In this document: one piece after another, positions 1-63,382 of the stretch | Layout: each line of letters starts with the position of its first letter | Position numbering within the stretch: the stretch's first letter is position 1 | NCBI GenBank assembly: GCA_028716945.1 | Contig: JAQUOT010000001.1 | Coordinates: forward strand, 187,927 to 251,926 | Length of the DNA stretch: 64,000 nt | Direction of reading: 5' to 3' | DNA from: Candidatus Nanoarchaeia archaeon | Lineage (GTDB): Archaea > Nanobdellota > Nanobdellia > SCGC-AAA011-G17 > JAFCDX01 | Made by a program: the position numbers and the translations under genes | Notes under the pieces: model-generated | Told to the model about the DNA's origin: nothing | The model's database searches: none | The model's input: only the letters and a program-made list of their open reading frames with translations

Positions 1-1146
1 GTGCACAAAAATTCCACTATACGGATTAAAATTTATAATTTGACTATAATAATAATTTCCAGAATTATCACCTGCCTCATCAACCCAAGTTTCTTTTTTT
101 AATAATCTTTTTAATTCTAAAGAAGTAATTGTAGGTTTGATATTAAATAATGATTTTCCAAGAGTTAATTTATTTTGAGGAGTTTCAATTAAATAAGAAT
201 CATCACAAATTTTGTTTCCTGTTTGAACATTATCAAGAGTAGAAATACATTCTACTTTTTTAGTTAAGGTTATACTATTTGTTCCTATATTTAATACTAA
301 TTTTGAATCTATATCTTGTATTGTTGTGGGTACATTTGGTGTAAAAGCTATATTTGAATATTCATCTCCAACACTTAAAATTTTAATATTTATTTTTTTA
401 GTATTCCAATTTACTTTTGTTATCATAAATTTATCCATTTTATTTTCATGACAAGATTCGAAACAAACTCCTACAGGTGTTGAAATAGCTACTCCTTTAC
501 CAGAAGATTCTAATAATGCAGTACAAGAAGTTAGACTTGAAATTTTACAAGCACCATTTTCACAACCATTTGGACAAGTATAATAATCCCAAGCAACATT
601 TCCTCCAGAACAATAAGCTTCTGCTAAACGATTTGGATATAAAATTTGATCAGAACAACCATCATAATAAACTGCTCCCAAAGTATCTTTAACATTTCCA
701 GCAGTAAAATAATCTTTTTCATTATCAGAATCTACACAAGTATTAGCTGCAGATGTTGATAATGTAACACATTTTCCTCCAACACATTTTTTATTATATT
801 GAGAACAATCTACTTCAGCAAAATTAGAATTAATACTTTTACAATACCCTTCTATTAAAATATTGGTGTTATCTCCATATTTACAATAATCCCATCCAGT
901 AGTAGACGTAAATAAATTAGTTCCCAAACCATTTTTTGCATCGATTTTACCTTGAACATCTAAATTCCAATAACTAGAACTAGAACCATCTGATTTTATA
1001 CATGAATAAGTAGAAGCTTCTAAAGTTCTTGTATTATCTGAATTTGTTCCAAATAAATTAGTTAAAAAATTATTTATTGAAAAAGCAAATACAATTGGAG
1101 TTACTAAGATTAATAATAAAGAAAGTACAATCAAGCTCTTTTTCAT
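1..1146 (-). CDS. Giant Cys-rich secreted surface protein, N-terminal part (gene continues past window start); paralogue of 1187..3832
   Basis: Minus-strand ATG at 1144-1146. First about 61 codons and upstream 36 bp are identical to the 1187..3832 gene. Translation MKKSLIVLSLLLILVTPIVFAFS... is a signal peptide, followed by a 6-Cys domain (...CVDSDNEKDY...YYDGC...LAEAYCSGG...YTCPNGCENGAC) at about 558-760. Confidence 0.5.
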   Translation of the reverse strand, partial: MKKSLIVLSLLLILVTPIVFAFSINNFLTNLFGTNSDNTRTLEASTYSCIKSDGSSSSYWNLDVQGKIDAKNGLGTNLFTSTTGWDYCKYGDNTNILIEGYCKSINSNFAEVDCSQYNKKCVGGKCVTLSTSAANTCVDSDNEKDYFTAGNVKDTLGAVYYDGCSDQILYPNRLAEAYCSGGNVAWDYYTCPNGCENGACKISSLTSCTALLESSGKGVAISTPVGVCFESCHENKMDKFMITKVNWNTKKINIKILSVGDEYSNIAFTPNVPTTIQDIDSKLVLNIGTNSITLTKKVECISTLDNVQTGNKICDDSYLIETPQNKLTLGKSLFNIKPTITSLELKRLLKKETWVDEAGDNSGNYYYSQIINFNPYSGIFVH

Positions 1147-1182
1147 ATAAATAATATTAAAATTTATATATTTAAATCTTTT
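963..1182 (-). repeat. About 220-bp direct repeat, copy A (100% identical to 3647..3868): promoter plus signal peptide plus first about 60 codons
   Basis: Base-by-base comparison of 963-1182 with 3647-3868 shows identity, with sharp divergence on both sides. Confidence 0.85.
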
Positions 1183-1186
1183 GTTT

Positions 1187-3832
1187 TTATTTTTTAGAAG
1201 AAAGTTCAAGTCTAGCTTTTTGTTGGTTTCTTATTTTTTTGAAAATATAATCTAATTGGTTTTTCTTCCAACCTTTTTTAACCAAAGCATCTTTAATATC
1301 AATTTCAGATTTTTTATCTGCCAATTGTTTTTTAACATATGCTTCTAATTTTATTTCTTGTTCTTTATTTGAAATTGGAGATCCTCTTTTTATTATATAA
1401 TATTGCCAATATATGAAAACTCCAACAATTACAACTACTACAAATAATATTATTAAAATATACCATGGGAAACTTGATCCACAATCGGCCTTACACCATC
1501 CCTCTTCTAATGGATGACATACTCCATCTCCACATTGATATTCTGGTTCTTCAGTTATTTCTGTTTTAGTTGTAATAGAACATTGTTCTGAAGTAGAACT
1601 TAACTGATTTCCTGTGGTTGTATCATAAGTATAAACTGTTCTTGTTCCTATTCCATCTCCTTCGGGATCTATACAATCTCCTAATCTCTGTTCGTAAGAA
1701 CTTTGACTAGCCATAACAGAAGTTATTATACTACAAATTCCACCAATACAACATTTAACTGAATCTGATGAAGCTACAGAAATAAATTGTCCGGTTGTTC
1801 CAGTACATTGTTGATTTTCTAAACATATTTGTCCATCTAAATTATTACAAGTATAATCAGAATAATCTATTGTAAGTTCTTTACATTGCCCAGTACTAAG
1901 ATCTCTTGATTGACAAGACACACATTCTTCATCTTCTAAAGTACAAGTAGTAGTACAACTTGGATCACATGCATCTCCTTTCCCATCATTATCACAATCT
2001 GCTTGATCCTCATTATAAATGTATATGCAATTATCTTCATCATCACAAATTCCATCTTCATCATAATCATCTTCACATTCTAAGCAAGCAGCATTAGATA
2101 CACAAGCACTATCTGCACAATCTGTTAATCCATTACAATTATTATCAATATTATCAGTACAACTAGTTTCTGATTGAGCACAAGAAGAAGGGGTACATCC
2201 TCCATTATTACATCCATACCCATATGTTTGACAATCAACAACTAAAGTCCATACATTATTTTTACATTCTTGTACATTAGTTCCTAAACATCTTAACTGA
2301 TTTTCTTGACAAACAGCAGCTATACAACTTGTAGCAGATGTACAACAATTTAAACAATCACTTACTCCAGTTATAAGACTAGAACATGTTTGTCCAGATG
2401 TACAACAAACACCATTTTTTTGAGCACAAGTTTGTGAATTAGAAGAAGTAGTACCACATTGATTAGCAGTGCCTGCACCACCACAAGTTTCAGCAGCACT
2501 AACATTACAAGTTAATGTCCCTGTTTTAGATAGATTAGTTCCACAATTTGTTGAAACAATTTTATTTCCACAAAACGAACTTAGGTCTGGAGTAAATATA
2601 ATGGGAGTACATCCACTTCCTCCTACGCCTGCAGCACCACTAACAGTACAACTTTTAATTAATGAAAATTGATTAGTACATGCAGCATCTGTACAATATT
2701 GTTGCCCACCTATACCGGGATTAAAAACTTGACAAATAGACCAAGTTGAACAAGTTGATGTTGTACAAACTCCTTTAGATCCACTTCCTCCTGAAGAAGA
2801 AATATTTGAACTATTAATTTTTTTACAAAGGGTACCAATATCTCCTATATCTCCAACATTACATTTTGAATTTGGTACATATGTTGTACAATTATAAGTA
2901 GTATTTACCCACCTTGTTCCTCCACAATAATAAAAATTTCCAGAGGTACATAAATATTTTCCCCTCATACCAGCAGTACAATTTATTCCATTAAAGTTAA
3001 TTTGAGAAGTATCTCCACAAGTTTTAGCAGTAAATACTACTTTATTTGACAAAGCTCCATTCCATACCCAAACAACATATTTTTGTCCAGGTTCTAAAAC
3101 ATAACTTGGAGATAAGGGTTGTACATTTCCAGCTACATCTCCAGAACCGGTTAATTTTATATTAAACTCATTAAGTGTAAAGGTTTCGGTTGCTTTTGAT
3201 GTATCTTTTACTTCTATAGCATAATAGGTTGATGTAGAAGGATCTGCATTACTTATTTCTCCTTTAAAAACATCAATACTATAAGTTCCACTACTAGGAA
3301 CACTTCCACCACTAAAAGTTATATTTACTTTTGATTTAGTTCCTTCACAAGAAGTTGTAATAGTTGAAGATAAAGTTACGGGGGTTATTATACTTCCTGC
3401 TCCACCCGAAGTTGTGGGTGTAACACATTTTCCACTGCTACATATTTTACCATAATCAGAACAATCTATTTTTCCAATATAAAATGAATTTACAGTATTT
3501 CCACAATACCATTCTCCTAAAAGAGTACCTGTAGTATCTTGTCCAATATCTTTAAGACAATAATCAGAACCTACTACTTGGGTTGTAGAGCTAGAACCAA
3601 TCGCAGAAGTAGTTAATGTAATTTTACTAATTTTACCTTGGATATTATAATTCCAATAACTAGAACTAGAACCATCTGATTTTATACATGAATAAGTAGA
3701 AGCTTCTAAAGTTCTTGTATTATCTGAATTTGTTCCAAATAAATTAGTTAAAAAATTATTTATTGAAAAAGCAAATACAATTGGAGTTACTAAGATTAAT
3801 AATAAAGAAAGTACAATCAAGCTCTTTTTCAT
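1187..3832 (-). CDS. Giant Cys-rich surface protein (signal peptide, many Cys-rich and beta-rich repeats, C-terminal TM helix, short basic cytoplasmic tail)
   Basis: ORF track 1187..3877. I moved the start to Met-16 (ATG 3830-3832) because everything upstream is the conserved promoter shared with the copy at 1146. C-terminus has the TM helix FPWYILIILFVVVVIVGVFIYW plus a lysine-rich tail. Confidence 0.6.
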   Translation of the reverse strand: MKKSLIVLSLLLILVTPIVFAFSINNFLTNLFGTNSDNTRTLEASTYSCIKSDGSSSSYWNYNIQGKISKITLTTSAIGSSSTTQVVGSDYCLKDIGQDTTGTLLGEWYCGNTVNSFYIGKIDCSDYGKICSSGKCVTPTTSGGAGSIITPVTLSSTITTSCEGTKSKVNITFSGGSVPSSGTYSIDVFKGEISNADPSTSTYYAIEVKDTSKATETFTLNEFNIKLTGSGDVAGNVQPLSPSYVLEPGQKYVVWVWNGALSNKVVFTAKTCGDTSQINFNGINCTAGMRGKYLCTSGNFYYCGGTRWVNTTYNCTTYVPNSKCNVGDIGDIGTLCKKINSSNISSSGGSGSKGVCTTSTCSTWSICQVFNPGIGGQQYCTDAACTNQFSLIKSCTVSGAAGVGGSGCTPIIFTPDLSSFCGNKIVSTNCGTNLSKTGTLTCNVSAAETCGGAGTANQCGTTSSNSQTCAQKNGVCCTSGQTCSSLITGVSDCLNCCTSATSCIAAVCQENQLRCLGTNVQECKNNVWTLVVDCQTYGYGCNNGGCTPSSCAQSETSCTDNIDNNCNGLTDCADSACVSNAACLECEDDYDEDGICDDEDNCIYIYNEDQADCDNDGKGDACDPSCTTTCTLEDEECVSCQSRDLSTGQCKELTIDYSDYTCNNLDGQICLENQQCTGTTGQFISVASSDSVKCCIGGICSIITSVMASQSSYEQRLGDCIDPEGDGIGTRTVYTYDTTTGNQLSSTSEQCSITTKTEITEEPEYQCGDGVCHPLEEGWCKADCGSSFPWYILIILFVVVVIVGVFIYWQYYIIKRGSPISNKEQEIKLEAYVKKQLADKKSEIDIKDALVKKGWKKNQLDYIFKKIRNQQKARLELSSKK

Positions 3833-3868
3833 ATAAATAATATTAAAATTTATATATTTAAATCTTTT
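3647..3868 (-). repeat. About 220-bp direct repeat, copy B (promoter and signal-peptide cassette)
   Basis: Identical to 963..1182. Confidence 0.85.
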
Positions 3869-3873
3869 TATTT

Positions 3874-5895
3874 TCAAAATAAAGGTTTTATTCTGGTTTC
3901 TTTCAAAGCTTCCTTAATTTGTTCCTCTTTCCACCCTTTTATTCTTAAAGAACTTATAATTTGTTCTTTTGGAATACCTTGATTTATTTTAACTTGAATA
4001 TAATTTGATAATCTTGCTAAACTTAATTCTTTTTCAATATCGGATTGTGGCCAACCTGCTCTTTCTAATTCCTCTTTTATATTCTTCAAAGGAACTTTTG
4101 CATTTAAAGATTTTTGAATATATTCTTTCATTTTTTCAACATTAACAGGTCTTACTTTTATTGTAGGTTCTTGTTTTATTTCTTTTACAAAAGTTTGAGG
4201 AGCAACTTCTTTTGGTTGAACTATCGGACTTGATTCTTCAACAACTGCTCTTTTTCTTTGTACATAAGTATAAATTATAATTACTAAAATCATAATGAAA
4301 ACTATTCCAGAAATTAAACTTACTCCAATAAGCACCTTATTTGATTTATTTTCAAGATTAGTGTTAGTACCTAAATTAACATTTGTAGTTGTTCCTGCTA
4401 AAACAGTAGAAGTACAAGAAATAGAACAGCAAATTCCTGATCCCGAATGTAATAAAGTAGAACTACTACAAGTTTGATTACTTCCACAAACATAACCATT
4501 TTCTAAAGAGCAAGAACAATCTGAATCTCCTCCAACGCAAGATATAGAACAACCATCATTTATTCCACAAGTAGAACCAGTACAAGATTCATTAATTGCA
4601 GGTCTTCCTGTTAAAGTTCCACAATTATTTTCATCAATACAAGTTCTTGTTCTTACATTATTAACACAAGAAGTCCAATTTGTACAATTCCAAGTTTCAG
4701 AACAGGAAGAAGTAGAATTTGTAATATTAATTAAGAATAAATTACCAACAACATACAATCCTAAACTATCATTAGCACTAAATCTTATTAAATTGGTTCC
4801 AGTCCAGTTTGCTTTTGGAACAAATTCTGCTTCATCATTAGAATTTATAAAAATAGAAATAGAATTATTTCCGGTGAAATTATAAATTAATTTTTGTCCA
4901 TCTGGTTCTGAGAAATAATCCTCTAATTCTAAACTATCATTGGTATTTTTTCTCCAAGACATATTATCAAAATTATCTTTTAATATAGGAGGAGAATTTA
5001 ACATATCAATACTGCTTGAATTTACATAAGTTCCTTTAATCGTATCGTTAGCACTAATAGTACATGTCCATTCATCTATATGACTTTCAGTTATCTGTAC
5101 AGAAATATTACAAGATTTTCCATTTACCCAAGAATCTCCAGAACAAGATACATCTCCAGATTTAAATGGACTAGCAAAATTAGTTTCATTCCACAAAATG
5201 TATTTAACATTAACAGTACTACTATCCGTATCTTTAACAATAGAAGAACAATTTACATAATCTTTTACTCTAAACTTATTTGAACCAGTTAAATTAGTAA
5301 AAGAAACATCTGTTATTGTAGGAGGATTAGTTGTTACAGGAGCAGAAACTGTAAAACTTTTTGTATCTGAAATTAAAACATCTGCACTGTAATTTAAAAT
5401 GAATTCTAAAGTATAAGTTCCAGCACTTAAGGCAGATAATCCAGAAAAAGCAGATATAGGAGTACTTACAGTAACTTCAGAAAGCGTTGAAAATGCTCTT
5501 CCAGGTTGTTCAGGATTTTCCCAAGCCCAATCAGGACTATCATGACTTCCATCTTTAAAAATTTGACCATCAATACAATTTTTTGGATTTGCATTTGAGT
5601 TAGTTAAAAAATTTTCTAAAGTTAGAGTACTACGTTGTATAACTTGGTCTCCAGAATCTTTTATACCTATATAAACATTTGAAGACCCATTACAAGGAAT
5701 AACATCGCCTGCTAAAAATTTTATTGAAATATCTCCAGTTAATGATTGCCCTGCAGTTATAGTATCTAAATCAATATTATCTTTAACAACGTTTCCAGTA
5801 ATAGATGGCTTCATTAACATAAAAACTAAAAATGAGAATACAAATATTGCAAATATAAAAACGCTCAATTCTCTATCTTTTTTAATATGTACCAC
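3874..5895 (-). CDS. Large surface protein: signal anchor, Ig/PKD-like beta domains, Cys-rich stalk, TM helix, cytoplasmic tail with repeated K-G-W-x-x-Q motif
   Basis: 673-aa ORF. N-terminal hydrophobic segment; C-terminal Cys-rich region (CSETWNCTNWTSC...), then TM helix VLIGVSLISGIVFIMILVIIIY and a tail carrying ...RAGWPQSDIEKEL... and ...RIKGWKEEQIKEAL... Confidence 0.55.
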   Translation of the reverse strand: MVHIKKDRELSVFIFAIFVFSFLVFMLMKPSITGNVVKDNIDLDTITAGQSLTGDISIKFLAGDVIPCNGSSNVYIGIKDSGDQVIQRSTLTLENFLTNSNANPKNCIDGQIFKDGSHDSPDWAWENPEQPGRAFSTLSEVTVSTPISAFSGLSALSAGTYTLEFILNYSADVLISDTKSFTVSAPVTTNPPTITDVSFTNLTGSNKFRVKDYVNCSSIVKDTDSSTVNVKYILWNETNFASPFKSGDVSCSGDSWVNGKSCNISVQITESHIDEWTCTISANDTIKGTYVNSSSIDMLNSPPILKDNFDNMSWRKNTNDSLELEDYFSEPDGQKLIYNFTGNNSISIFINSNDEAEFVPKANWTGTNLIRFSANDSLGLYVVGNLFLINITNSTSSCSETWNCTNWTSCVNNVRTRTCIDENNCGTLTGRPAINESCTGSTCGINDGCSISCVGGDSDCSCSLENGYVCGSNQTCSSSTLLHSGSGICCSISCTSTVLAGTTTNVNLGTNTNLENKSNKVLIGVSLISGIVFIMILVIIIYTYVQRKRAVVEESSPIVQPKEVAPQTFVKEIKQEPTIKVRPVNVEKMKEYIQKSLNAKVPLKNIKEELERAGWPQSDIEKELSLARLSNYIQVKINQGIPKEQIISSLRIKGWKEEQIKEALKETRIKPLF

Positions 5896-5934
5896 CTCTC
5901 CTTATATTTAATAACAATAAGCGGTATATAAAAT

Positions 5935-6486
5935 TTATTCTTTATGCTCTTTTATGATTTCTGCTTGAAATTTGTATATTTTTACAAATTTGTCCTTCCA
6001 AAAGTTCTCTGACAACCCTGCTTTATAACATAAGGAATCCAAAAACTCAGTCAAATTCATTTTATGTTCAATAGGAACTTGGGGCAATAACAATCCTTTT
6101 CTTCCCAAATATTCTATAATTAATCCATCTTTTCCAAGTTTTATTTTCTTCAAATATTCTTCTGGAGTTTTTACTTTGATTAATTTAGGAATTGTTAATA
6201 TTGAAATTTCTATGGAAAACTTTTCTCCTTGTTTTAAAGATTCAAATCTATTATCAGAGAATGCAGCAAATCTCGCGGCTTCTGCAATGCTTTTTCCAAG
6301 AATATTATAAGGTTCAATAAAACCAATACACCCTTTTAATTTTCTTTTGGAATATAAAGTAACAAAAACACCTTTTTTTTCTTTGAATTTATTTAATTCT
6401 TTTTCATCAATTTCCTTACCAGAAAAATAAGTTTCTATGGATTTTCTAGCTAACTCTAATAATTTCTTAGCTTGCAATTTATTCAT
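5935..6486 (-). CDS. AMMECR1-domain protein
   Basis: 183 aa with the conserved ...KLKGCIGFIEP... core typical of the AMMECR1 family. Confidence 0.6.
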   Translation of the reverse strand: MNKLQAKKLLELARKSIETYFSGKEIDEKELNKFKEKKGVFVTLYSKRKLKGCIGFIEPYNILGKSIAEAARFAAFSDNRFESLKQGEKFSIEISILTIPKLIKVKTPEEYLKKIKLGKDGLIIEYLGRKGLLLPQVPIEHKMNLTEFLDSLCYKAGLSENFWKDKFVKIYKFQAEIIKEHKE

Positions 6487-6508
6487 ACAAAATTAAAGAA
6501 TTACAAAT

Positions 6509-6766
6509 TTATAATCTTTTAGATTCTTTTCTTAATTCATCTACTATTTTCTTAAGCGAAGAAATAGTGCTTGTTAATGATTTTTTAGGATCTTTGCTTT
6601 CTACTATAAATACTGGACTACTAGTTAAAGGATGTTCTACTTTATAACCTGCTATATCCGAATTTTTAGTTAATTCTTTTCTTAAAACATTACAAAGAGT
6701 ATGATTTTCTCCTTTGATTTCAAATTTTAACTTTGTTTTTGTTTGTTCTAAAATATTGAGTTCCAT
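6509..6766 (-). CDS. rpoL: DNA-directed RNA polymerase subunit L (Rpo11)
   Basis: 85 aa. ...GENHTLCNVLRKEL...AGYKVEHPL... matches the Rpo11/RpoL signature (HTLGNxLR...Y..HPL). Confidence 0.6.
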   Translation of the reverse strand: MELNILEQTKTKLKFEIKGENHTLCNVLRKELTKNSDIAGYKVEHPLTSSPVFIVESKDPKKSLTSTISSLKKIVDELRKESKRL

Positions 6767-6805
6767 TTTTCTTTTAATATATGTAATTCAGTATATAGTT
6801 CTTTT

Positions 6806-7282
6806 TTAAACCTTTCGTTTCTCTTTTATATTTAACAAATCCCCTATTTTTAAAGTACCATCTTTTAAATTTAAACTAGGTTTATGGGTTTCAGGATTGA
6901 CATAATATGCCTTAAAAGTGTCTATCAATTTTATACTTAATATTTTCTCTATATTTTTAGCCATTCTAAAAGTAGGTACTAATTTATTGGATTCTAAATT
7001 TCTAATAGTAATAATTCTATCATACATTTTATTTGCTAAATCTTCTTCTGTCCAGTTTAATTTTAATCTAGCATTTTTAATTCTTGAAGAGAAATCAGGA
7101 ACAATCATTTCATTTTCTTCTTCTTTTTGTAATTCCAGAATTTTTTCTTCTATTTCTTTTGGTTTTATTTCAACAGCTTTTCCAAGAGCAATACAATTAG
7201 AACAAGCTTTAATTAAAACTCCTTCAAAAATAGCTTCTCTTGTTTCGCATTCCTTTTTATTACAAACTGCACAATTATTCAT
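6806..7282 (-). CDS. mbf1: Archaeal multiprotein bridging factor 1 (Zn-ribbon plus XRE-type HTH)
   Basis: N-terminal C-x2-C...C-x2-C (CAVCNKKEC...CSNC), then an HTH segment IKNARLKLNWTEEDLANKM. Confidence 0.5.
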   Translation of the reverse strand: MNNCAVCNKKECETREAIFEGVLIKACSNCIALGKAVEIKPKEIEEKILELQKEEENEMIVPDFSSRIKNARLKLNWTEEDLANKMYDRIITIRNLESNKLVPTFRMAKNIEKILSIKLIDTFKAYYVNPETHKPSLNLKDGTLKIGDLLNIKEKRKV

Positions 7283-7949
7283 TTTTTACAAGAGCAAATA
7301 CTTCTCCAACGCTTGTAAAACCTTCTTTTTTATCTTTATTATTTACTATTATTGTTGGTGCTTTTGTAATATTATAATAATTCTTTACTAAATTCAAAGT
7401 TGGCTCATCAAATTGTCTATCTATAGAAAATATCTTAATATTAATATCTTGTCTATTTGCTAAATTATCTAAAACATAACCCTGCTTTATTGAATTATCC
7501 TCTTCCAAATCATAAAAATATAAAATAATATTTTGTTTATTATCACATTTTTTATTATAATCTATGAAAAGAGAATAAGCCCTTATTTCAAGTAAAAAAT
7601 ATTGTTCTCTTAATGAATCATATTCTTTTTCTTTTAATATATTTTTATCATCATATTCCATTAACCTCTGTCCTAAATCATATAAATTTCCAGAACTTGA
7701 AGAAAGTCTTTCTTTTATTAAATTACAATTTCCTATATCTAAGGATTCTAAGAATTGTTGCTCAACAAAAATGCTGATTATATCTAAATTATTTTGGTTT
7801 AAATTATAAGCAACATCACTTGTTCTTAAATCATCCCAAATTTTTGCAGTATAAAATCCTAATAGAAATATAGCTACAGTAATTACTAGCGCTGTTATGA
7901 AAATATCTTTTCTTATCTTTGGCATTTTACCATTTCCTCTTAGCCCCAA
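7275..7949 (-). CDS. Membrane-anchored hypothetical protein (N-terminal TM), last gene of the glycosyltransferase cluster
   Basis: 224 aa with a single N-terminal hydrophobic helix. Overlaps both neighbouring genes. Confidence 0.3.
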   Translation of the reverse strand: MGLRGNGKMPKIRKDIFITALVITVAIFLLGFYTAKIWDDLRTSDVAYNLNQNNLDIISIFVEQQFLESLDIGNCNLIKERLSSSSGNLYDLGQRLMEYDDKNILKEKEYDSLREQYFLLEIRAYSLFIDYNKKCDNKQNIILYFYDLEEDNSIKQGYVLDNLANRQDINIKIFSIDRQFDEPTLNLVKNYYNITKAPTIIVNNKDKKEGFTSVGEVFALVKNE

Positions 7950-11721: not shown

Positions 11722-12090
11722 TTACTCTAACCCTTGGTATTCTAAAGATTGTTTTTCGCTTAAACAAGCACCATCAAAACATCCTTCTTCACAATAAACT
11801 ATCATTGTTTGGAAATTAAAAGAATTTGTCGAATCACAATTATACTCTTTTAATCTATTTGCATCTACGCAATAATCTGTTCTTTCACGCAGATTACAAT
11901 CGTCTCCTCTTACTGAAACAGTTCCTTTTAGATTAATACTTCCTTGGTCTGTATCTTTACAAGATTTATCACAACCAACAAGAACATTACTAGTTGTTGT
12001 AAATTGAGTTACTCCCAAAGTTAATAAAAGAATTACTGCTATAAGTAATAAAGCAGATAATAAAACTTCTTTATTAAATTTCTTTGCCAT
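11722..12090 (-). CDS. Small membrane-anchored 6-Cys protein, paralogue 1 of 5 (CxDTDxG ... TDYC ... EYxC ... CxxGCxDGAC)
   Basis: N-terminal hydrophobic anchor, then CKDTDQG...TDYC...KEYNC...CEEGCFDGAC. Confidence 0.55.
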   Translation of the reverse strand: MAKKFNKEVLLSALLLIAVILLLTLGVTQFTTTSNVLVGCDKSCKDTDQGSINLKGTVSVRGDDCNLRERTDYCVDANRLKEYNCDSTNSFNFQTMIVYCEEGCFDGACLSEKQSLEYQGLE

Positions 12091-12091
12091 T

Positions 12092-12487
12092 TTATTTTAT
12101 GCAAGCTCCATCTTTACAACCTTTTTCACAAATAACCAATTTATCATTATATTCACTATAAGTAAAATCTTGAGAGTTAGAACTTTCTGGATCTGATCCA
12201 CAGAAATATTCTTTTACGGCAGAATATTTATTTTCTTCATTTGGTCCAACCTGTACATAAGCACAATAATCGGTTTTTGCTTCAAAAGCATAGCGTCCTT
12301 TGCTTACCGCAGTTACTGTACCTTTAACAAATTGATTATATCCTCCATCTGTATCATTACAACTTCTTTTTAGAAGAACGTTTCCAGTTGTAAAATTTAT
12401 AAAGCTTAATATAAAAAATGCGCAAACAGATACTATTAAAATTAGAATAATATAATCCCTAACATCCACTTCTTTTTTCTTTTTCAT
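12092..12487 (-). CDS. Small membrane-anchored 6-Cys protein, paralogue 2
   Basis: CNDTDGG...KTDYC...KEYFC...CEKGCKDGAC. Starts 1 nt after paralogue 1 ends. Confidence 0.55.
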   Translation of the reverse strand: MKKKKEVDVRDYIILILIVSVCAFFILSFINFTTGNVLLKRSCNDTDGGYNQFVKGTVTAVSKGRYAFEAKTDYCAYVQVGPNEENKYSAVKEYFCGSDPESSNSQDFTYSEYNDKLVICEKGCKDGACIK

Positions 12488-12561
12488 ATCTTATTTATAC
12501 ATTTAATTATTTATAAAGATTTCTATATAAATTAAAAAAATAAAAAATAAAAAATTTTAAT

Positions 12562-12891
12562 TTATTGTAAGCATGCTCCGTTTTGACAGCCATTTGCACA
12601 ATAAACTGAAGGATCTCTGTTATATCCGCTTGCATCTGCCACATTACAATTAAATTCTACTAATGTCTTTCCTGTTGAATCATCCATAGAACAATAATCT
12701 GTTTGTGGGTCAAAAGCAGTTCCTCCAGAATCAGTACCTGTTACAGTACCTTGCATGTAAATACTTCCACCATCAGTATCTTGACAAGAAACTTTTATAA
12801 CTTTTCCTGTTGTTAAAATACCTGATGCTAAAAGCACTGCTAAAACGAGCAAAACTACTAATCCGATTATAGTTTTGTCTTTTGTATCCAT
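12562..12891 (-). CDS. Small membrane-anchored 6-Cys protein, paralogue 3
   Basis: CQDTDGG...QTDYC...VEFNC...CANGCQNGAC. Confidence 0.55.
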   Translation of the reverse strand: MDTKDKTIIGLVVLLVLAVLLASGILTTGKVIKVSCQDTDGGSIYMQGTVTGTDSGGTAFDPQTDYCSMDDSTGKTLVEFNCNVADASGYNRDPSVYCANGCQNGACLQ

Positions 12892-12931
12892 AATTTAATT
12901 AAGAACAATCTATATTTAAATGTTTCTAAAC

Positions 12932-13267
12932 TTATTCTATGCAAGCGCCGTCTTTACAACCCTTTTCACAAACAACTAATTCAGATTCCCAATTATTTGG
13001 AGTAAGCAAATTACAGTTATATTCTTTTAATTCCTTTGTATTTTCTAAAGAACAATAGTCTGTTTCTTCAAATTGGGCATTGTAATCAGTATATCCTGTT
13101 ACTATTCCTTTTACATAAATACTTCCACTATCTGTATCTTCACAATGTGCTTTAAAACTAAATCCAGTAACTTTCTCAAAAAATCCTGTTGCAAAAAATA
13201 ATAAATATAAAGACAGTATTACAAAAATTACCAATAATTTTCTTGAAAAACCTTCAAATAATTTCAT
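12932..13267 (-). CDS. Small membrane-anchored 6-Cys protein, paralogue 4
   Basis: ORF track 12932..13309. Start moved to MKLFEGF (ATG 13265-13267) to remove the overlap with paralogue 5. CEDTDSG...ETDYC...KEYNC...CEKGCKDGAC. Confidence 0.5.
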   Translation of the reverse strand: MKLFEGFSRKLLVIFVILSLYLLFFATGFFEKVTGFSFKAHCEDTDSGSIYVKGIVTGYTDYNAQFEETDYCSLENTKELKEYNCNLLTPNNWESELVVCEKGCKDGACIE

Positions 13268-13281
13268 TTTGAAATAAAAAA

Positions 13282-13650
13282 TTATCTCTCGCAAGCCCCG
13301 TTCTTGCAACCATATTCACAAACAATAAATTTATAGGAATATGCGTTTTTGTCTGTTTCTTCTGGGTCAATATCATGCAAACAATAATATTCTTTTAAAA
13401 CATCGGTTTTTTCAGGATTATCTTCATAATATACACAATAGTCTACTTCATTAATCTGTATTTGAGAAGGATATTGGTGTCCTGAAAGCTTTCCTCTAGC
13501 AAATTCATTATCTCCACTATCAGTATCATAACAATAGCCTGCACGCATACTTTGCCCAGTAGTATAATTTATAGTATTATTTAGCACAATTAAAACTGCT
13601 AAAACAACTAAGATTGCAGAACCTATCACCACTTTATCTCTATTATCCAT
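13282..13650 (-). CDS. Small membrane-anchored 6-Cys protein, paralogue 5
   Basis: CYDTDSG...VDYC...KEYYC...CEYGCKNGAC. Confidence 0.55.
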   Translation of the reverse strand: MDNRDKVVIGSAILVVLAVLIVLNNTINYTTGQSMRAGYCYDTDSGDNEFARGKLSGHQYPSQIQINEVDYCVYYEDNPEKTDVLKEYYCLHDIDPEETDKNAYSYKFIVCEYGCKNGACER

Positions 13651-17188: not shown

Positions 17189-17338
17189 GGAGCGGTAGCT
17201 CAGAAAGGTTTTGAAGTTTAAGACCTTGAGCAACCTGGGAGAGCATAGAAATATCTCAAACCACGCTGAAGCCGTGGATGAAAGGTTATACGTCTAGTAT
17301 ACCTTGCCAAATCGGGGGTTCAAATCCCCCTCGCTCCA
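17189..17338 (+). tRNA. tRNA-Phe (anticodon GAA) with three insertions: D-loop about 27 nt, 16 nt at position 26/27, about 31 nt in the variable region
   Basis: Manual fold: acceptor GGAGCGG/TCGCTCC (G-U at pair 7), D-stem GCTC/GAGC, anticodon arm CCACG-CTGAAGC-CGTGG, T-arm GGGGG-TTCAAAT-CCCCC, discriminator A. The variable-region insert forms a hairpin TATAC-gtcta-GTATA. Confidence 0.5.
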
Positions 17339-18026
17339 TTTTCTTTATATTTTTAATATTAGAACTTCTTATTAATTTAATAAAAGAGGAGGCATTATTA
17401 TAACCGCTTATTTGTATTTTATATTTTTCATACCTTTTATTAGTTCTTTTATCTATATAATTTTCATGTCCTACATAATGATCTATCTTTTGAATTTTAA
17501 TCCAATCAGATATTTTGTATATTAAATTTTTATCTTTTAGACCAAGATTAATAACTGGATAAAATTTATATTTTCCGTGATTCTTTTTTAAACACAAAGA
17601 ACCATCTGTATCAAAAATTCCTTTAATGAATGCTTTAGCATAAATTTTATTATCCCATATCCATCGAGGAACCTTATTTCTATAATTTATTTTTTTATAA
17701 CCTATAATATTAAGAAAAGATAATATCCCTTTAGATCTCTTTGTTAAGATTAAAGTATTAATCTTTTTCTTTTGATATAAATTCATCTTTACATTGAATA
17801 AAAACAAAACTTTATCTTTAATATAGTTTGAATAATTCCTCTCATCTTTGAGATTACTAAAAATAGAAAAAATATAATCATTGCTTCCTAAATTATAATA
17901 AACATGGCCATCTCCAGACAAAATACCTAAAAATTCTGACAAGTCTCTAGAAGAGGATTTAGGAAAAATAATTTTATTCTTAATATCTTGGTGACTTAGT
18001 TGAATATCTGATAAATCAAATTTCAT
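17286..18026 (-). CDS. LAGLIDADG-family homing-endonuclease-like protein, copy 1
   Basis: Motifs LGILSGDGHV and KGIFDTDGSL (two LAGLIDADG-type helices, so a single-chain enzyme). Start set at MKFDLSDI (ATG 18024-18026) because upstream sequence is conserved non-coding in copy 2. The last about 17 codons are antisense to the tRNA-Phe 3' half. Confidence 0.55.
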   Translation of the reverse strand: MKFDLSDIQLSHQDIKNKIIFPKSSSRDLSEFLGILSGDGHVYYNLGSNDYIFSIFSNLKDERNYSNYIKDKVLFLFNVKMNLYQKKKINTLILTKRSKGILSFLNIIGYKKINYRNKVPRWIWDNKIYAKAFIKGIFDTDGSLCLKKNHGKYKFYPVINLGLKDKNLIYKISDWIKIQKIDHYVGHENYIDKRTNKRYEKYKIQISGYNNASSFIKLIRSSNIKNIKKMERGGFEPPIWQGILDV

Positions 18027-34546: not shown

Positions 34547-35164
34547 ATGATTTTTAAGGAAATAAAGGCATTAAAAGTCAAAAACATCGAATATTTAGCT
34601 CAAGGAAAGAGATCTATAATATATACTGGAATTTTTAGAAATAAAAAAGTTGCAATTAAAACTGAAAAACCAGGAATAAGCGCTAAAGATAGAATTTTAA
34701 ATGAAGCTAAATTTCTTAAAATAATTAACAAATATAAAATTGGACCAAGATTAATCACTTCTAGAAAAAAATTTATGATCTATGAGTTTGTAAAAGGAAG
34801 ATTTATTCTTGATTCTTTTCCTGAAAAGAGTAAAAAAGAGATTTTAAAACTAATTAAAAACGTTTTAGAGCAATGTTTTATTTTAGATAAATTAAAAATT
34901 AATAAACTTGAAATGCATCATCCCATAAAACACATAATCATCGATAAAAAACCTGTTTTAATAGACTTTGAAAGAAGTTATTTAACAAATAATCCAAAAA
35001 ATGTAACTCAATTCTGCCAGTTTATTATGTCTCATCCTTTGATTGACATTTTAAATAATAAAAAAATAAAAATTGATAGAAATAATTTCATAAATATTGT
35101 AAAAGAATATAAAAGAGATAAAACTAAAAATAATTTAAAAAAAATAAAAAAAGAAATAAATTAA
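34547..35164 (+). CDS. Small Bud32/RIO-like protein kinase
   Basis: Gly-rich loop region ...LAQGKRSIIYTG..., VAIK lysine, about 200-aa kinase core, as in the KEOPS Bud32 subunit. Confidence 0.4.
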   Translation: MIFKEIKALKVKNIEYLAQGKRSIIYTGIFRNKKVAIKTEKPGISAKDRILNEAKFLKIINKYKIGPRLITSRKKFMIYEFVKGRFILDSFPEKSKKEILKLIKNVLEQCFILDKLKINKLEMHHPIKHIIIDKKPVLIDFERSYLTNNPKNVTQFCQFIMSHPLIDILNNKKIKIDRNNFINIVKEYKRDKTKNNLKKIKKEIN

Positions 35165-35895
35165 ATTAATCTACATGGCCTATTGCTTCTGTAAAACTGT
35201 CCTTGTGCATTTACACAAACATATGCATTACCGCCATTTGGTTTAGCCAAACTAGTAACTTTTAAACTATTGGTTTCACAAGTATTATCTGCATTACAAG
35301 AATTTGCTCTTACTTCTTCCAAAGTTTCTATATTTGTTGCACCTAACAAACCTTTAATTCCTGAAACGGCTGCATAAACTTCTTCATAAGTTATTAAAGC
35401 GTCCTTATTTGTATCTACAGAATTACAAAAGTCTGAACTAAATCCATACCCAATACAATCCTCTATTGAAATAGATTTTGTATAAGTATTAGAAACTTGT
35501 CCGAGAAGATTATTTGCTGCAGATAAATCAGGAATTTCTAATATTCCGTTTCCATCTGAATCATACAAAGTAATTCCAGCTATCTTACTTTTAATATAGT
35601 CATAAGCATATTGTGCTTCGGCAACAGTAATGTGATTATCATTATTTATATCTACCGAATTACAAAAGTTTAGACTTCTTTTTTCTGCACAATTATTAAC
35701 TAAAATAAATTGTACATTGGTATTATAAACCTGTCCAAGAAGACTAGTTGCTACACTTAAATCTGGAATTTCTAATATTCCGTTTCCATCTGAATCAAAT
35801 GGAACTGCTACTGCTTTTCCAGTATAACTAGCACCTATAATAAAAAGTGCTACCAATACTAAAACAATCGATAAGATTATAGTATTTCTTTCCAA
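35161..35895 (-). CDS. Secreted protein with two dockerin-like Ca-binding repeat modules
   Basis: Twice DSDGNGILEIPDLS...LLGQV...CNSVD(I/T)N(N/K)D...IT..E (D-x-D-G-N-G EF-hand-like dockerin signature) after a signal peptide. Confidence 0.45.
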   Translation of the reverse strand: MERNTIILSIVLVLVALFIIGASYTGKAVAVPFDSDGNGILEIPDLSVATSLLGQVYNTNVQFILVNNCAEKRSLNFCNSVDINNDNHITVAEAQYAYDYIKSKIAGITLYDSDGNGILEIPDLSAANNLLGQVSNTYTKSISIEDCIGYGFSSDFCNSVDTNKDALITYEEVYAAVSGIKGLLGATNIETLEEVRANSCNADNTCETNSLKVTSLAKPNGGNAYVCVNAQGQFYRSNRPCRLI

Positions 35896-60681: not shown

Positions 60682-60786
60682 TTTTTCCTCCTTTTATTGA
60701 GTTATATGAGAGAAATGACTCCCAACCACCTAAGAATCTAAAGGACTTTAGGTTTATAAAGATTTTTATAAGGTTTTAAAAGTATA

Positions 60787-60882
60787 TGAGCCCGCGGAGA
60801 TTTGAACTCCGGGCCCCCACCAATGATTTGGTTTAAATCCAATTTATCAGAGTGGTGCGCTACCAGGCTGCGCCACGGGCTC
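60787..60882 (-). tRNA. tRNA-Ile (anticodon GAU) with about 22-nt intron at or near the canonical 37/38 position
   Basis: Reverse complement: acceptor GAGCCCG/CGGGCTC, D-arm GCGC-AGCCTGGTA-GCGC, anticodon stem CCACT/GGTGG, loop CTGATAA followed by insert attggatttaaaccaaatcatt, T-arm CGGAG-TTCAAAT-CTCCG, discriminator A. Confidence 0.55.
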
Positions 60883-60961
60883 ATGAGATATATTGTTAAA
60901 AGATAATTTATAAGGTTTTTGAATTGATAAAGTTTAAATAATATTAAATTTTAACTATCCT

Positions 60962-61673: not shown

Positions 61674-62687
61674 ATGGAAAAAAAAGAAATACTTGCACAT
61701 TTTAGTTATGGAAGTGCTATAAGAAATGCTATAGAAAAAATAACTAATGCTAATCGTGGAGTTTTAGTTGTTTTTGTTAAAGATAAGGGTATTAAAAAAA
61801 TAAGTGTTGGTGGTTTTAAAATAAATGAAGAGTTTTCTGAAGAAAGACTTGCTGAATTAGCAAAATTAGATGGAGCAATATTGGTAGATAATAAACTACA
61901 AAAAATAATTAGTGCTAATGTCTTATTAAATCCGAGTATAAAAATTCCTAGTACAGAAACAGGTACAAGACATCAAGCAGCAGAAAGAACTGCAAGACAA
62001 TTAGATACAATGGTTCTTGCTATTTCTGCAAAAACAGGAACTGCAATGGTATATCATGGAAATGGTAAATTAAAATTAAATAATTTAGGTAAAATATTCA
62101 CAAAGACTGGAGAAGCACTAAGAATTATTGAAAAGCATAGAGAATTATTTAAAGTTTTAATAAAAAAGTTTGATACTTTTGAATTATTAGAAATGGTTAC
62201 ATTAGAAGACCTTGCTTCTATATTTCAAAGAGAAAAAATAATGGATTCTGTTGCAGATATAATCTCTGTTTATTTAAGCGAATTAGGTGATGAAGGAGAA
62301 TTAACAGAATTACAATTAAAAGAAATTATAACTTATGTTCATGCAGAATTAGCTGCAATTATGGCAGATTATCATGATTATTTTAATTTTGATAAGATAA
62401 TTGAAGAATTAAAAGACTTAAAACGTGATGAAATTGTAGTTAAAGAAAACATTTTTAAAATATTCTTAGATAATAGAAAAAAAGAAGATACATTAATACC
62501 GAAAGGTTATAGAATATTAAAGAACATCCCTATTTTAACAGAAGAAAATATAAAGTTATTAATGGAAACTTTCCCAAGTTTAAAAGAATTAATTTCTGCT
62601 CAAGAAGAAGAATTAGCTGCTATCAAATCTATAGGAAATAAAAAGGCTAAAGCTATAAGAGAATATCTATTAAAAGCACAGATTTAA
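61674..62687 (+). CDS. DisA-like diadenylate cyclase (DAC domain, helical linker, C-terminal HhH)
   Basis: ...LDGAILVD..., ...TGTRHQAAERTARQ..., ...AISAKTG... (DAC motifs DGA / GTRH..A / S..TG). C-terminal ...EEELAAIKSIGNKKAKAIREYL is a helix-hairpin-helix. Confidence 0.55.
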   Translation: MEKKEILAHFSYGSAIRNAIEKITNANRGVLVVFVKDKGIKKISVGGFKINEEFSEERLAELAKLDGAILVDNKLQKIISANVLLNPSIKIPSTETGTRHQAAERTARQLDTMVLAISAKTGTAMVYHGNGKLKLNNLGKIFTKTGEALRIIEKHRELFKVLIKKFDTFELLEMVTLEDLASIFQREKIMDSVADIISVYLSELGDEGELTELQLKEIITYVHAELAAIMADYHDYFNFDKIIEELKDLKRDEIVVKENIFKIFLDNRKKEDTLIPKGYRILKNIPILTEENIKLLMETFPSLKELISAQEEELAAIKSIGNKKAKAIREYLLKAQI

Positions 62688-63382
62688 GAATTATTTCTAA
62701 AATAATAATATTTTTTCCAATGTTTGGGGTTATTAGGAGAGATAATTTTCATCCATTTATTTAACATAAATTCTCCTCTAATTGAAACCTTATATAAATC
62801 TAACCAATTATGATTTTTATGTTTATAAGAATAGATTGTAGAACGAATTCCTAATTTGTTTATTAAATTATTTAATTGTAATCCTAAAGGTTTAGAAGTG
62901 GTGCTTATCTCTAAACGAGGATATAATTTTTTATATTTTGGTTGTAAATATAAAGTTCCATCCGTATCAAAGATTCCTTTAACCACATTAATAGTATACT
63001 CCTTTCTATTTAAGAAACAAGAAGGTATACAAATATCAAATTTTTTACCAAGAGGTAATTTAAGAATTTTATTTTTAAATTCGATTAATGAATCATCCCA
63101 AATTTGAAATCCAAATACTTTTGTAGAAGGCATTTCTTTTGGTTTTATTTTTAAATCATAAACTTTTTTATATAAATCTATAATTTTATTATTATAATGT
63201 TCTTTATCATCAAACATATGCCCCCTTAAAGAATAAAGTCCTTTAGACGTATTTCCGTTTTTGTAAAAATTCATACTTCCATCTCCAATATGCAATCCTG
63301 TTTCTTCTGCTAATTCTATTATTGGTTTTTCTGGAAGTATAAGTTTAGTGCTTTGCTTAATGTCAGATAAATCAAACTTCAT
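62684..63382 (-). CDS. LAGLIDADG-family homing-endonuclease-like protein, copy 2
   Basis: MKFDLSDI... (first 8 aa identical to copy 1), motifs LHIGDGSM and KGIFDTDGTL. Confidence 0.55.
   Translation of the reverse strand: MKFDLSDIKQSTKLILPEKPIIELAEETGLHIGDGSMNFYKNGNTSKGLYSLRGHMFDDKEHYNNKIIDLYKKVYDLKIKPKEMPSTKVFGFQIWDDSLIEFKNKILKLPLGKKFDICIPSCFLNRKEYTINVVKGIFDTDGTLYLQPKYKKLYPRLEISTTSKPLGLQLNNLINKLGIRSTIYSYKHKNHNWLDLYKVSIRGEFMLNKWMKIISPNNPKHWKKYYYFRNNS

Follow-up and report, generated by a model that had tools for sequence, protein, structure and literature searches.

A leader carrying the promoter and signal peptide of two tandem archaeal surface-protein genes is probably homogenised by recurrent gene conversion

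The stretch of DNA analysed here (the window) comprises 64,000 nucleotides of contig JAQUOT010000001.1 from a Candidatus Nanoarchaeia archaeon, a member of the DPANN lineage, and has a G+C content of 27.5%. At its start lie two tandem genes on the minus strand, here called A and B, which begin with the same 220-bp leader and then continue into largely different proteins. Gene A (1187-3832, minus strand) encodes 881 amino acids (aa); according to its open reading frame (ORF) and translation, these comprise the leader, a Cys-rich N-domain, Cys-rich modules, a weak thrombospondin-type-3 (TSP3)-like calcium-binding repeat, a C-terminal transmembrane (TM) helix and a cytoplasmic tail. Pfam returned only weak, sub-threshold matches for gene A, the thrombospondin-type-3 repeat among them, and likewise nothing above threshold for the neighbours scanned alongside it; NCBI names the product of gene A 'thrombospondin type 3 repeat-containing protein'. 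Gene B (751 aa) is cut by the window edge, with its 5' 382 codons at positions 1-1146 (minus strand). The full gene, L001:6530-8785, was taken from another contig of this organism (L001; JAQTPZ010000005.1, NCBI GCA_028712455.1), which is 100% identical to window positions 1-7675. A sequence-only reading of this DNA had described both genes as giant; at 881 and 751 aa they are large rather than giant.

Gene B comprises the leader, Cys-rich domains, an S-layer-like module (aa 313-613) and an EF-hand/dockerin-like C-terminus, and has no TM anchor. It has no Pfam match and does not reach the gathering score of PF05124 (S-layer-like). Across 311 aa, its residues 313-613 nonetheless share 54% identity with P0003, which is encoded in the same genome and matches PF05124 with 34.7 bits (cutoff 23.9). 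Gene B thus appears to carry an S-layer-related module, yet is no PF05124 member by model. The 3' ends of the two genes are unrelated, with a TM helix and tail in A as against an EF-hand-like domain in B. Judged by these predicted architectures, A and B are probably secreted or surface proteins whose bodies are mostly non-homologous. As a separate observation, the last 80 residues of gene B resemble an EF-hand/dockerin-like repeat that is also found in ORF 35161-35895 (minus strand, 244 aa), where a TM segment lies at the N-terminus and a tandem pair of 234-bp repeats (81% identity to each other) matches EF-hand Pfam models. The likeness to gene B suggests a possible calcium-dependent, dockerin-like module common to surface proteins.

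Comparison of the window with itself, base by base at an offset of 2686, revealed a single exact run of 220 bp: positions 963-1182, at the start of gene B, equal positions 3649-3868, at the start of gene A (repeat family D1). Both copies lie on the minus strand as a direct repeat and span nucleotides -36 to -1 together with codons 1-61 of the two tandem ORFs. The duplicated leader had been noted in the sequence-only reading, whose 36 upstream base pairs and roughly 61 codons agree with the placement of the ORFs. Its coordinates 963-1182 and the end at 3868 are also correct, but its start of 3647 for the second copy is off by two and should be 3649. A repeat search of the window extended the pair to 245 nt at 97% identity (944-1188 and 3630-3874), found no third copy in the 64 kb and left the leader pair as the sole long exact repeat of the window. 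At a background identity of 60%, an exact run of 220 nt has p ~1e-49, and chance is excluded.

The repeat ends differently on its two sides. Directly downstream, identity falls from 100% over 220 bp to 59.6% at the nucleotide and 37% at the amino acid level across codons 62-144; past approximately residue 144, A and B cannot be aligned except for one Cys module of ~40 aa. The bodies are therefore as strongly diverged as the sequence-only reading had stated. Its report of an abrupt loss of identity on both sides requires some qualification. The drop is indeed sharp, but the downstream edge in gene B is ragged over ~19 nt (944-962, minus strand; partner in A 3630-3648), where 14/19 nt match before the sequences diverge, and the abruptness upstream mostly reflects the repeat meeting a different upstream gene. 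On that side the two loci have unrelated sequence, and identity ends 4-5 nt beyond the preceding gene's stop codon; A and B are each separated from the gene before them by a spacer of just 40-41 bp. The gene upstream of A (3874-5895, minus strand) encodes a 673-aa surface protein with a C-terminal TM segment and a 'KGW' cytoplasmic tail as in A; it is without the leader, and its stop codon bounds the leader of A.

Archaeal promoters have a TATA box centred ~26-27 nt upstream of the transcription start, with a purine-rich B recognition element (BRE) before it. In gene sense, the 36 bp 5' of the ATG read AAAAGA-TTTAAATA-TATAAATTTTAATATTATTTAT-ATG. The putative core promoter of gene A (3855-3868, minus strand; -36 to -23 from the ATG), assigned by reading, consists of a BRE-like AAAAGA at 3863-3868 and a TATA box, TTTAAATA, at 3855-3862. 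An identical candidate promoter precedes gene B (1169-1182, minus strand), with the BRE-like hexamer at 1177-1182 and the TATA box at 1169-1176. The 36 bp thus look like a complete archaeal core promoter, a purine-rich BRE-like element followed by a canonical TATA box. Their spacing is typical of the window, in which TATA-like octamers upstream of ORFs start at -30/-29 in 8 of 12 occurrences. Such spacing would place the transcription start at about the ATG, so that, going by established archaeal promoter architecture, the mRNAs of A and B are probably leaderless. A scan for sigma-70 promoters and terminators returned 19 sites in comparison with 18.6 expected, but relies on bacterial consensus and is uninformative for an archaeon.

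The coding part of the leader specifies a predicted signal peptide, then a linker, INNFLTNLFGTNSDNTRTLEA, then the first residues of the Cys-rich domain, including its first Cys. Sec signal peptides combine a basic n-region, a hydrophobic h-region of 15-20 residues and small residues at positions -3 and -1 of the cleavage site. By inspection, codons 1-23 of gene A (3764-3832, minus strand; MKKSLIVLSLLLILVTPIVFAFS) have n-, h- and c-regions laid out as MKK / SLIVLSLLLILVTPIVF / AFS, which fits the Sec type, with cleavage probably after VFA or AFS; the predicted signal peptide of gene B (codons 1-23; 1078-1146, minus strand) is identical. An AlphaFold2 model of residues 1-144 of A, built on a 5-sequence alignment, had a mean predicted local distance difference test (pLDDT) score of 56.6, too poor for a fold search. 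This low-confidence model places a helix at residues 3-33, followed by a disordered stretch, with beta strands only from ~residue 67.

Scanning species-representative genomes with the 61-aa leader identified only one related genome carrying it: JBAZJB010000001.1 (JGI Ga0265297_10000017; 766,449 bp), two pieces of which are referred to as L002 and L003. This relative is syntenic with the window genome at ~91% nucleotide identity. Because its contig ends overlap exactly by 1,674 bp (L002:9965-11638 = L003:1-1674), the relative is a closed circular genome of ~764.8 kb, whose contig break falls exactly at the 5' edge of the leader. The overlap resolves the relative's gene A (A_rel) as one gene of 1,051 aa, L003:37-3192, which is followed by its gene B (B_rel; L003:3233-5383, P0002). 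Between the two genomes the bodies of A and B correspond as orthologues, without any change of order; each gene is only 57% identical to its own orthologue, as against 76-93% for neighbouring genes.

A four-way alignment of the leaders revealed opposite groupings inside and outside the repeated tract. A_rel equals B_rel exactly over 167 bp, beginning at the same -36 position as the window tract and ending at codon 44 rather than codon 61. Inside these 167 bp the grouping is by genome at 8 sites and by orthologue at none. Of the 8, two lie in the promoter spacer (-9 and -2) and three are synonymous third positions; the others are the changes N26D and T29S, the latter involving two nucleotides. 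Downstream of the window tract, from alignment column 251, the pattern is reversed, with 17 sites uniting orthologues and 1 uniting the copies of a genome, so that the contrast between inside and outside is 8:0 versus 1:17 (Fisher p = 5.8e-6). The phylogeny inside the tract, where copies of one genome cluster, is therefore incongruent with that outside, where orthologues cluster, as is characteristic of gene conversion. The sequence-only reading had proposed a comparison of strains at the repeat edges, and here the relative shares the -36 edge, with the 3' end at codon 44 as against codon 61.

Codons 45-61, over which the two tracts differ, give the direction of transfer. In this segment the window copy of B is the same as A, whereas B_rel has a different sequence that is 12 nt longer and resembles the B-type domain of a distant protein, P0012, in its long pre-Cys segment and 'CTK'. 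P0012, which served as the outgroup, has its own unrelated signal peptide. Since B_rel and P0012 both keep the B-type sequence at codons 45-61, the A-type sequence was copied into B in the window lineage, after the split of the two genomes. The donor A was kept, and the polarity given by P0012 runs from A to B, indicating a non-reciprocal exchange. The last event in the window lineage thus wrote A-type codons 45-61 into gene B. Between genomes, the A leader differs at 13 of 220 sites (5.9%; 94% conserved), and the N-domains of orthologues differ by 18.5% (81% identity).

We consider it likely that the leader identity of A and B reflects a tract kept by recurrent, recent gene conversion, that is, concerted evolution, between tandem and anciently diverged paralogues. 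Finding 0 differences in 220 bp and in 167 bp, against 13/220 between the genomes, indicates that the last conversions were recent; by this measure, the latest one in each lineage would date to about the most recent 5% of the period elapsed since the genomes split. Recent conversion in both lineages in turn implies that conversion is frequent relative to mutation, and the different 3' end points in the two lineages argue for frequent recurrence rather than one accident. The differences between genomes at promoter-spacer and synonymous sites reveal a leader sequence that is free to change, which rules out slow divergence. Recent gene conversion, as suggested by the sequence-only reading, is thus strongly supported: the relative's copies are identical to each other over 167 bp, are set apart from the window leader by 8 sites that they have in common, and have flanks that group by orthologue. 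Ordinary slow divergence, which that reading had named as the contrary outcome, does not describe the identity once the related genome is compared.

Mechanistically, non-reciprocal homologous recombination would homogenise the core promoter, start codon, Sec signal peptide, linker and first residues of the Cys-rich domain. It may proceed by RadA-type homologous repair, for example synthesis-dependent strand annealing, and the other gene could serve as template, either from its place 2.7 kb away or from a sister chromosome or another genome copy. Such a tract would perpetuate itself, since sufficiently long uninterrupted homology exists only in the part that has been homogenised before. The 5' limit of the tract would be fixed where homology stops at the stop codon of the preceding gene, and its 3' limit would wander within the fast-evolving N-domain. 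As a result, A and B would have a common promoter, yielding leaderless mRNAs, and a common signal peptide for export. Among archaea, Haloferax has been documented to carry out gene conversion efficiently (PMC11276520).

Several points weigh against recurrent conversion. Both genomes are short-read metagenome assemblies, in which De Bruijn bubble-popping could have erased a few differences between copies; the exact "100%" identity is that of an assembled consensus, from which a few copy-specific single-nucleotide polymorphisms (SNPs) could be lost. Only two genomes carry the locus, and the case for recurrence therefore rests on one comparison. In principle, all 8 substitutions could have arisen in one lineage, although this requires 0 changes in the other's 2 x 167 bp, with a probability of about e^-8 under equal rates. 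The assemblies revealed no recombination intermediate or population variant. Finally, homogenisation may be selected, for promoter strength, co-expression or the export signal, or it may be a neutral by-product.

The alternative that survives best invokes a single recent leader capture or conversion in the window genome only. One A-to-B event reaching from -36 to codon 61 would suffice for that genome, and the common leader of the relative would then represent old ancestry of the 5' ends. We regard this as unlikely, because A_rel equals B_rel over 167 bp and yet both stand 8 sites away from the window leader. Both copies would need to have remained in stasis while the genomes diverged by ~9% and the N-domains by ~18%. 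The separate 3' end points, at codon 44 and codon 61, likewise indicate separate events.

The sequence-only reading had gone further than conversion, proposing a cassette that swaps variable bodies behind a constant leader, the architecture of antigenic variation. If surface variation is programmed in this way, the cell would use the identical leader as a handle for recombination, exchanging, deleting or amplifying the variable bodies that follow a single module for expression and secretion. Recombination of the two direct repeats could pop out the 2,686-bp unit that carries gene A, or genome copies could undergo unequal exchange; either would lead to on/off or body switching of surface proteins. 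An exact 220-bp direct repeat around a whole surface-protein gene is certainly a valid substrate for deletion or duplication, and conversion is apparently frequent. The locus is also structurally dynamic between the genomes, with a 424-bp duplication, gain and loss of a module, and identities for A and B (57%) well below those of their neighbours (76-93%); the relative even has a second pair of genes sharing a leader. DPANN cell surfaces are moreover thought to mediate host contact (bioRxiv 10.1101/2023.10.27.564410).

Against these points, silent or promoterless copies were not found; A and B are both intact, and each has its own BRE/TATA elements and ATG. Leaderless silent cassettes, which the sequence-only reading had suggested seeking, and further leader copies were absent from 73 kb of available sequence and from genome, metagenome and viral contigs. 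Searches of 5.8e9 clustered proteins and of 1.84e9 representatives gave no leader-bearing protein beyond A, B and their two orthologues, to which the leader is confined across all collections searched. The genes share only a 5' homology arm and no 3' arm, so body replacement by double recombination is not possible. They are directly oriented, with no invertible element, and promoter inversion is therefore not possible either. For called genes within ~10 kb, no Pfam family suggesting a recombinase is on record, the order and orthology of the bodies are kept in both genomes, and the metagenome scan contained no contig of an A-deleted variant. An antigenic-variation cassette of the pilE/pilS, vlsE or sap type was thus rejected, as silent cassettes, two-sided arms or an invertible promoter, and bodies exchanged between the two genomes were all missing.

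From these comparisons, the moving part seems to be the leader and not the bodies, and we regard programmed variation as quite unlikely. The 220-bp direct repeats may occasionally delete or duplicate gene A. It is likewise quite improbable that tandem surface-protein genes of ultra-small episymbiotic archaea keep identical leaders, promoter and signal peptide included, as recombination handles. On that view, frequent exchange at the leaders, of which two independent pairs were seen, would delete, duplicate and reshuffle the bodies of surface proteins from one genome copy to another. If true, this would give DPANN archaea a simple recombinational means of varying their surface, which would bear on host attachment or on the evasion of viruses.

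That the repeat, or its perfection, arose by collapse or chimeric joining during metagenome assembly is very unlikely. Both genomes are represented by contigs of metagenome-assembled genomes, bubble-popping is able to erase a few SNPs, and the relative's contig starts exactly at the 5' edge of the leader and ends at the edge of a 424-bp repeat, which indicates that the assembler treated both as repeat nodes. Each copy is, however, joined to unique sequence on both sides, and both reading frames are intact. Two contigs of the window organism, of 67 kb and 536 kb and with different ends, agree at 100% over 7,675 bp that include both copies. In an independent sample and species the tandem layout recurs, but the length of the tract differs and lineage-specific bases occur.

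Selection on the nucleotides themselves, through an embedded RNA, a regulatory element or a mobile element, is hardly credible: the tract does include a constrained promoter and translation start, and the leader is more conserved between genomes than the adjacent domain (94% versus 81%), but the genomes differ at promoter-spacer and synonymous sites, a structured or known RNA is ruled out by the lack of any Rfam match in the leader and of a significant fold (z = -1.29), and a mobile element is ruled out by the absence of terminal inverted repeats, target duplications and matches in viral contigs, by the presence of two copies only, and by in-frame coding.

Recurrent gene conversion of the kind favoured here is a well-known process, and the locus reveals no new mechanism. 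The closest functional parallel is offered by the babA/babB/babC genes of Helicobacter pylori, in which 5' conversion ~60-240 bp from the start codon couples the 5' end of one gene to the body of another (PMC4552749). Like A and B, these are paralogous surface genes with a common N-terminal homology region and intragenomic 5' conversion. The bab genes differ in also having a C-terminal region that is >90% identical, in their dispersed loci and CT-repeat phase variation, in being bacterial and encoding unrelated proteins, and in that population switching has been demonstrated. A and B, in contrast, have the 5' arm only and are adjacent.

The sapA family of Campylobacter fetus reportedly has a conserved 5' segment that runs from upstream of the ORF into the N-terminus, with recombination taking place within this segment (Dworkin and Blaser, 1995-1997). 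As at the A/B locus, S-layer-type genes with divergent bodies have a common 5' segment that starts upstream of the ORF. The sapA system differs in having a single promoter on an invertible segment and oppositely oriented silent homologues, whereas A and B are two direct genes with their own promoters. In Neisseria pilE/pilS and Borrelia vlsE, one expression site is served by many promoterless silent cassettes, and conversion alters the variable part. These systems resemble A and B in combining a constant 5' expression and secretion part with a variable body and in using gene conversion as the mechanism. They differ in that the constant part is what is converted in A and B, for which no silent cassettes were found.

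Concerted evolution of equivalent genes provides a further comparison. The tufA and tufB paralogues of Salmonella are kept identical by gene conversion, and archaeal chaperonin subunits are said to evolve in concert by the same process (Archibald and Roger, 2002). Together with the equalisation of genome copies in Haloferax (PMC11276520), they have the same signature, with paralogues identical within a genome and diverging between genomes. In those cases, though, whole or large parts of functionally equivalent genes are homogenised, whereas in A and B the unit consists of a promoter, a signal peptide and ~38 mature residues on otherwise unrelated bodies. The present case is unusual in two respects only: the converted unit is a promoter and leader on otherwise unrelated proteins, and the host is a DPANN archaeon.

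If recurrent conversion is the correct account, the locus constitutes a clean, internally controlled case from an uncultivated member of the DPANN archaea whose genome measures ~0.5-0.8 Mb. Homologous recombination between paralogues would then be active, and fast compared with mutation, in these reduced genomes, and would shape fast-evolving surface-protein loci thought to mediate host contact. For annotators and assemblers, it would mean that exact repeats of 100-400 bp at the start of surface genes are genuine in these genomes as well as being assembly break points.

The A/B locus is clearly recombination-prone, and its surface genes appear, from their sequences, to be mosaics. A_rel contains an exact internal duplication of 424 bp, L003:444-867 and L003:1251-1674, at a distance of 807 bp; this duplication is absent from gene A of the window. 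Residues 408-450 of the window's A protein form a B-like Cys module of 43 aa, 62% identical to residues 624-664 of B, and A_rel is without this module.

The second leader pair in the relative (L002:1168-1266 and L002:1563-1661) belongs to adjacent small Cys-rich genes that have an exact 99-bp 5' end and diverged bodies. This leader consists of 8 bp upstream and 30 codons, MDTKDKTIIGLVVLLVLAVLLASGILTTGK. The window has a single orthologue of the pair (12562-12891, minus strand), which differs at 4 sites from both copies of the relative. More broadly, window positions 11722-13650 (minus strand) hold five small genes in tandem (109-131 aa); all five encode a single Cys-rich domain together with a TM or signal segment at the N-terminus, and the relative has six such genes. 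Only two of the five, 11722-12090 and 12092-12487, were scanned against Pfam, and these gave no match. Their Cys domain follows the pattern C-x-D-[TS]-D..G ... DYC ... EY-C ... C-x-x-GC-x-[ND]-GAC and also occurs at residues 137-200 of gene B and, repeated, in P0006 and P0007.

Among the genes neighbouring A and B, which are archaeal, Pfam identified RpoL, AMMECR1, a TFIIS-like zinc ribbon and PCNA, and two further neighbours, assigned by reading their translations, we take to be MBF1 and aRF1. A thioredoxin gene at L001:9798-10121 lies between the TFIIS-like gene and a 94-aa ORF, and is absent at the same position in the relative (L003). The paralogous ORFs 17285-18026 and 62683-63382 (both minus strand) have a conserved upstream element of ~75 bp, the upstream regions reaching to about 18100 and 63516. 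This element includes a GC-rich GTGCGCGCCAG abutting the TATA box, unusual at 27% G+C. ORF 62683-63382 is in addition preceded by a sequence resembling a tRNA 3' end, GGTTCGAGTCC. Two tRNA matches were found in the window, at 17189-17338 (plus strand, 150 nt), a weak match of 31.6 bits from Rfam only, and at 60786-60883 (minus strand, 98 nt), a tRNA-Ile. Both are longer than a normal tRNA and so presumably contain introns.

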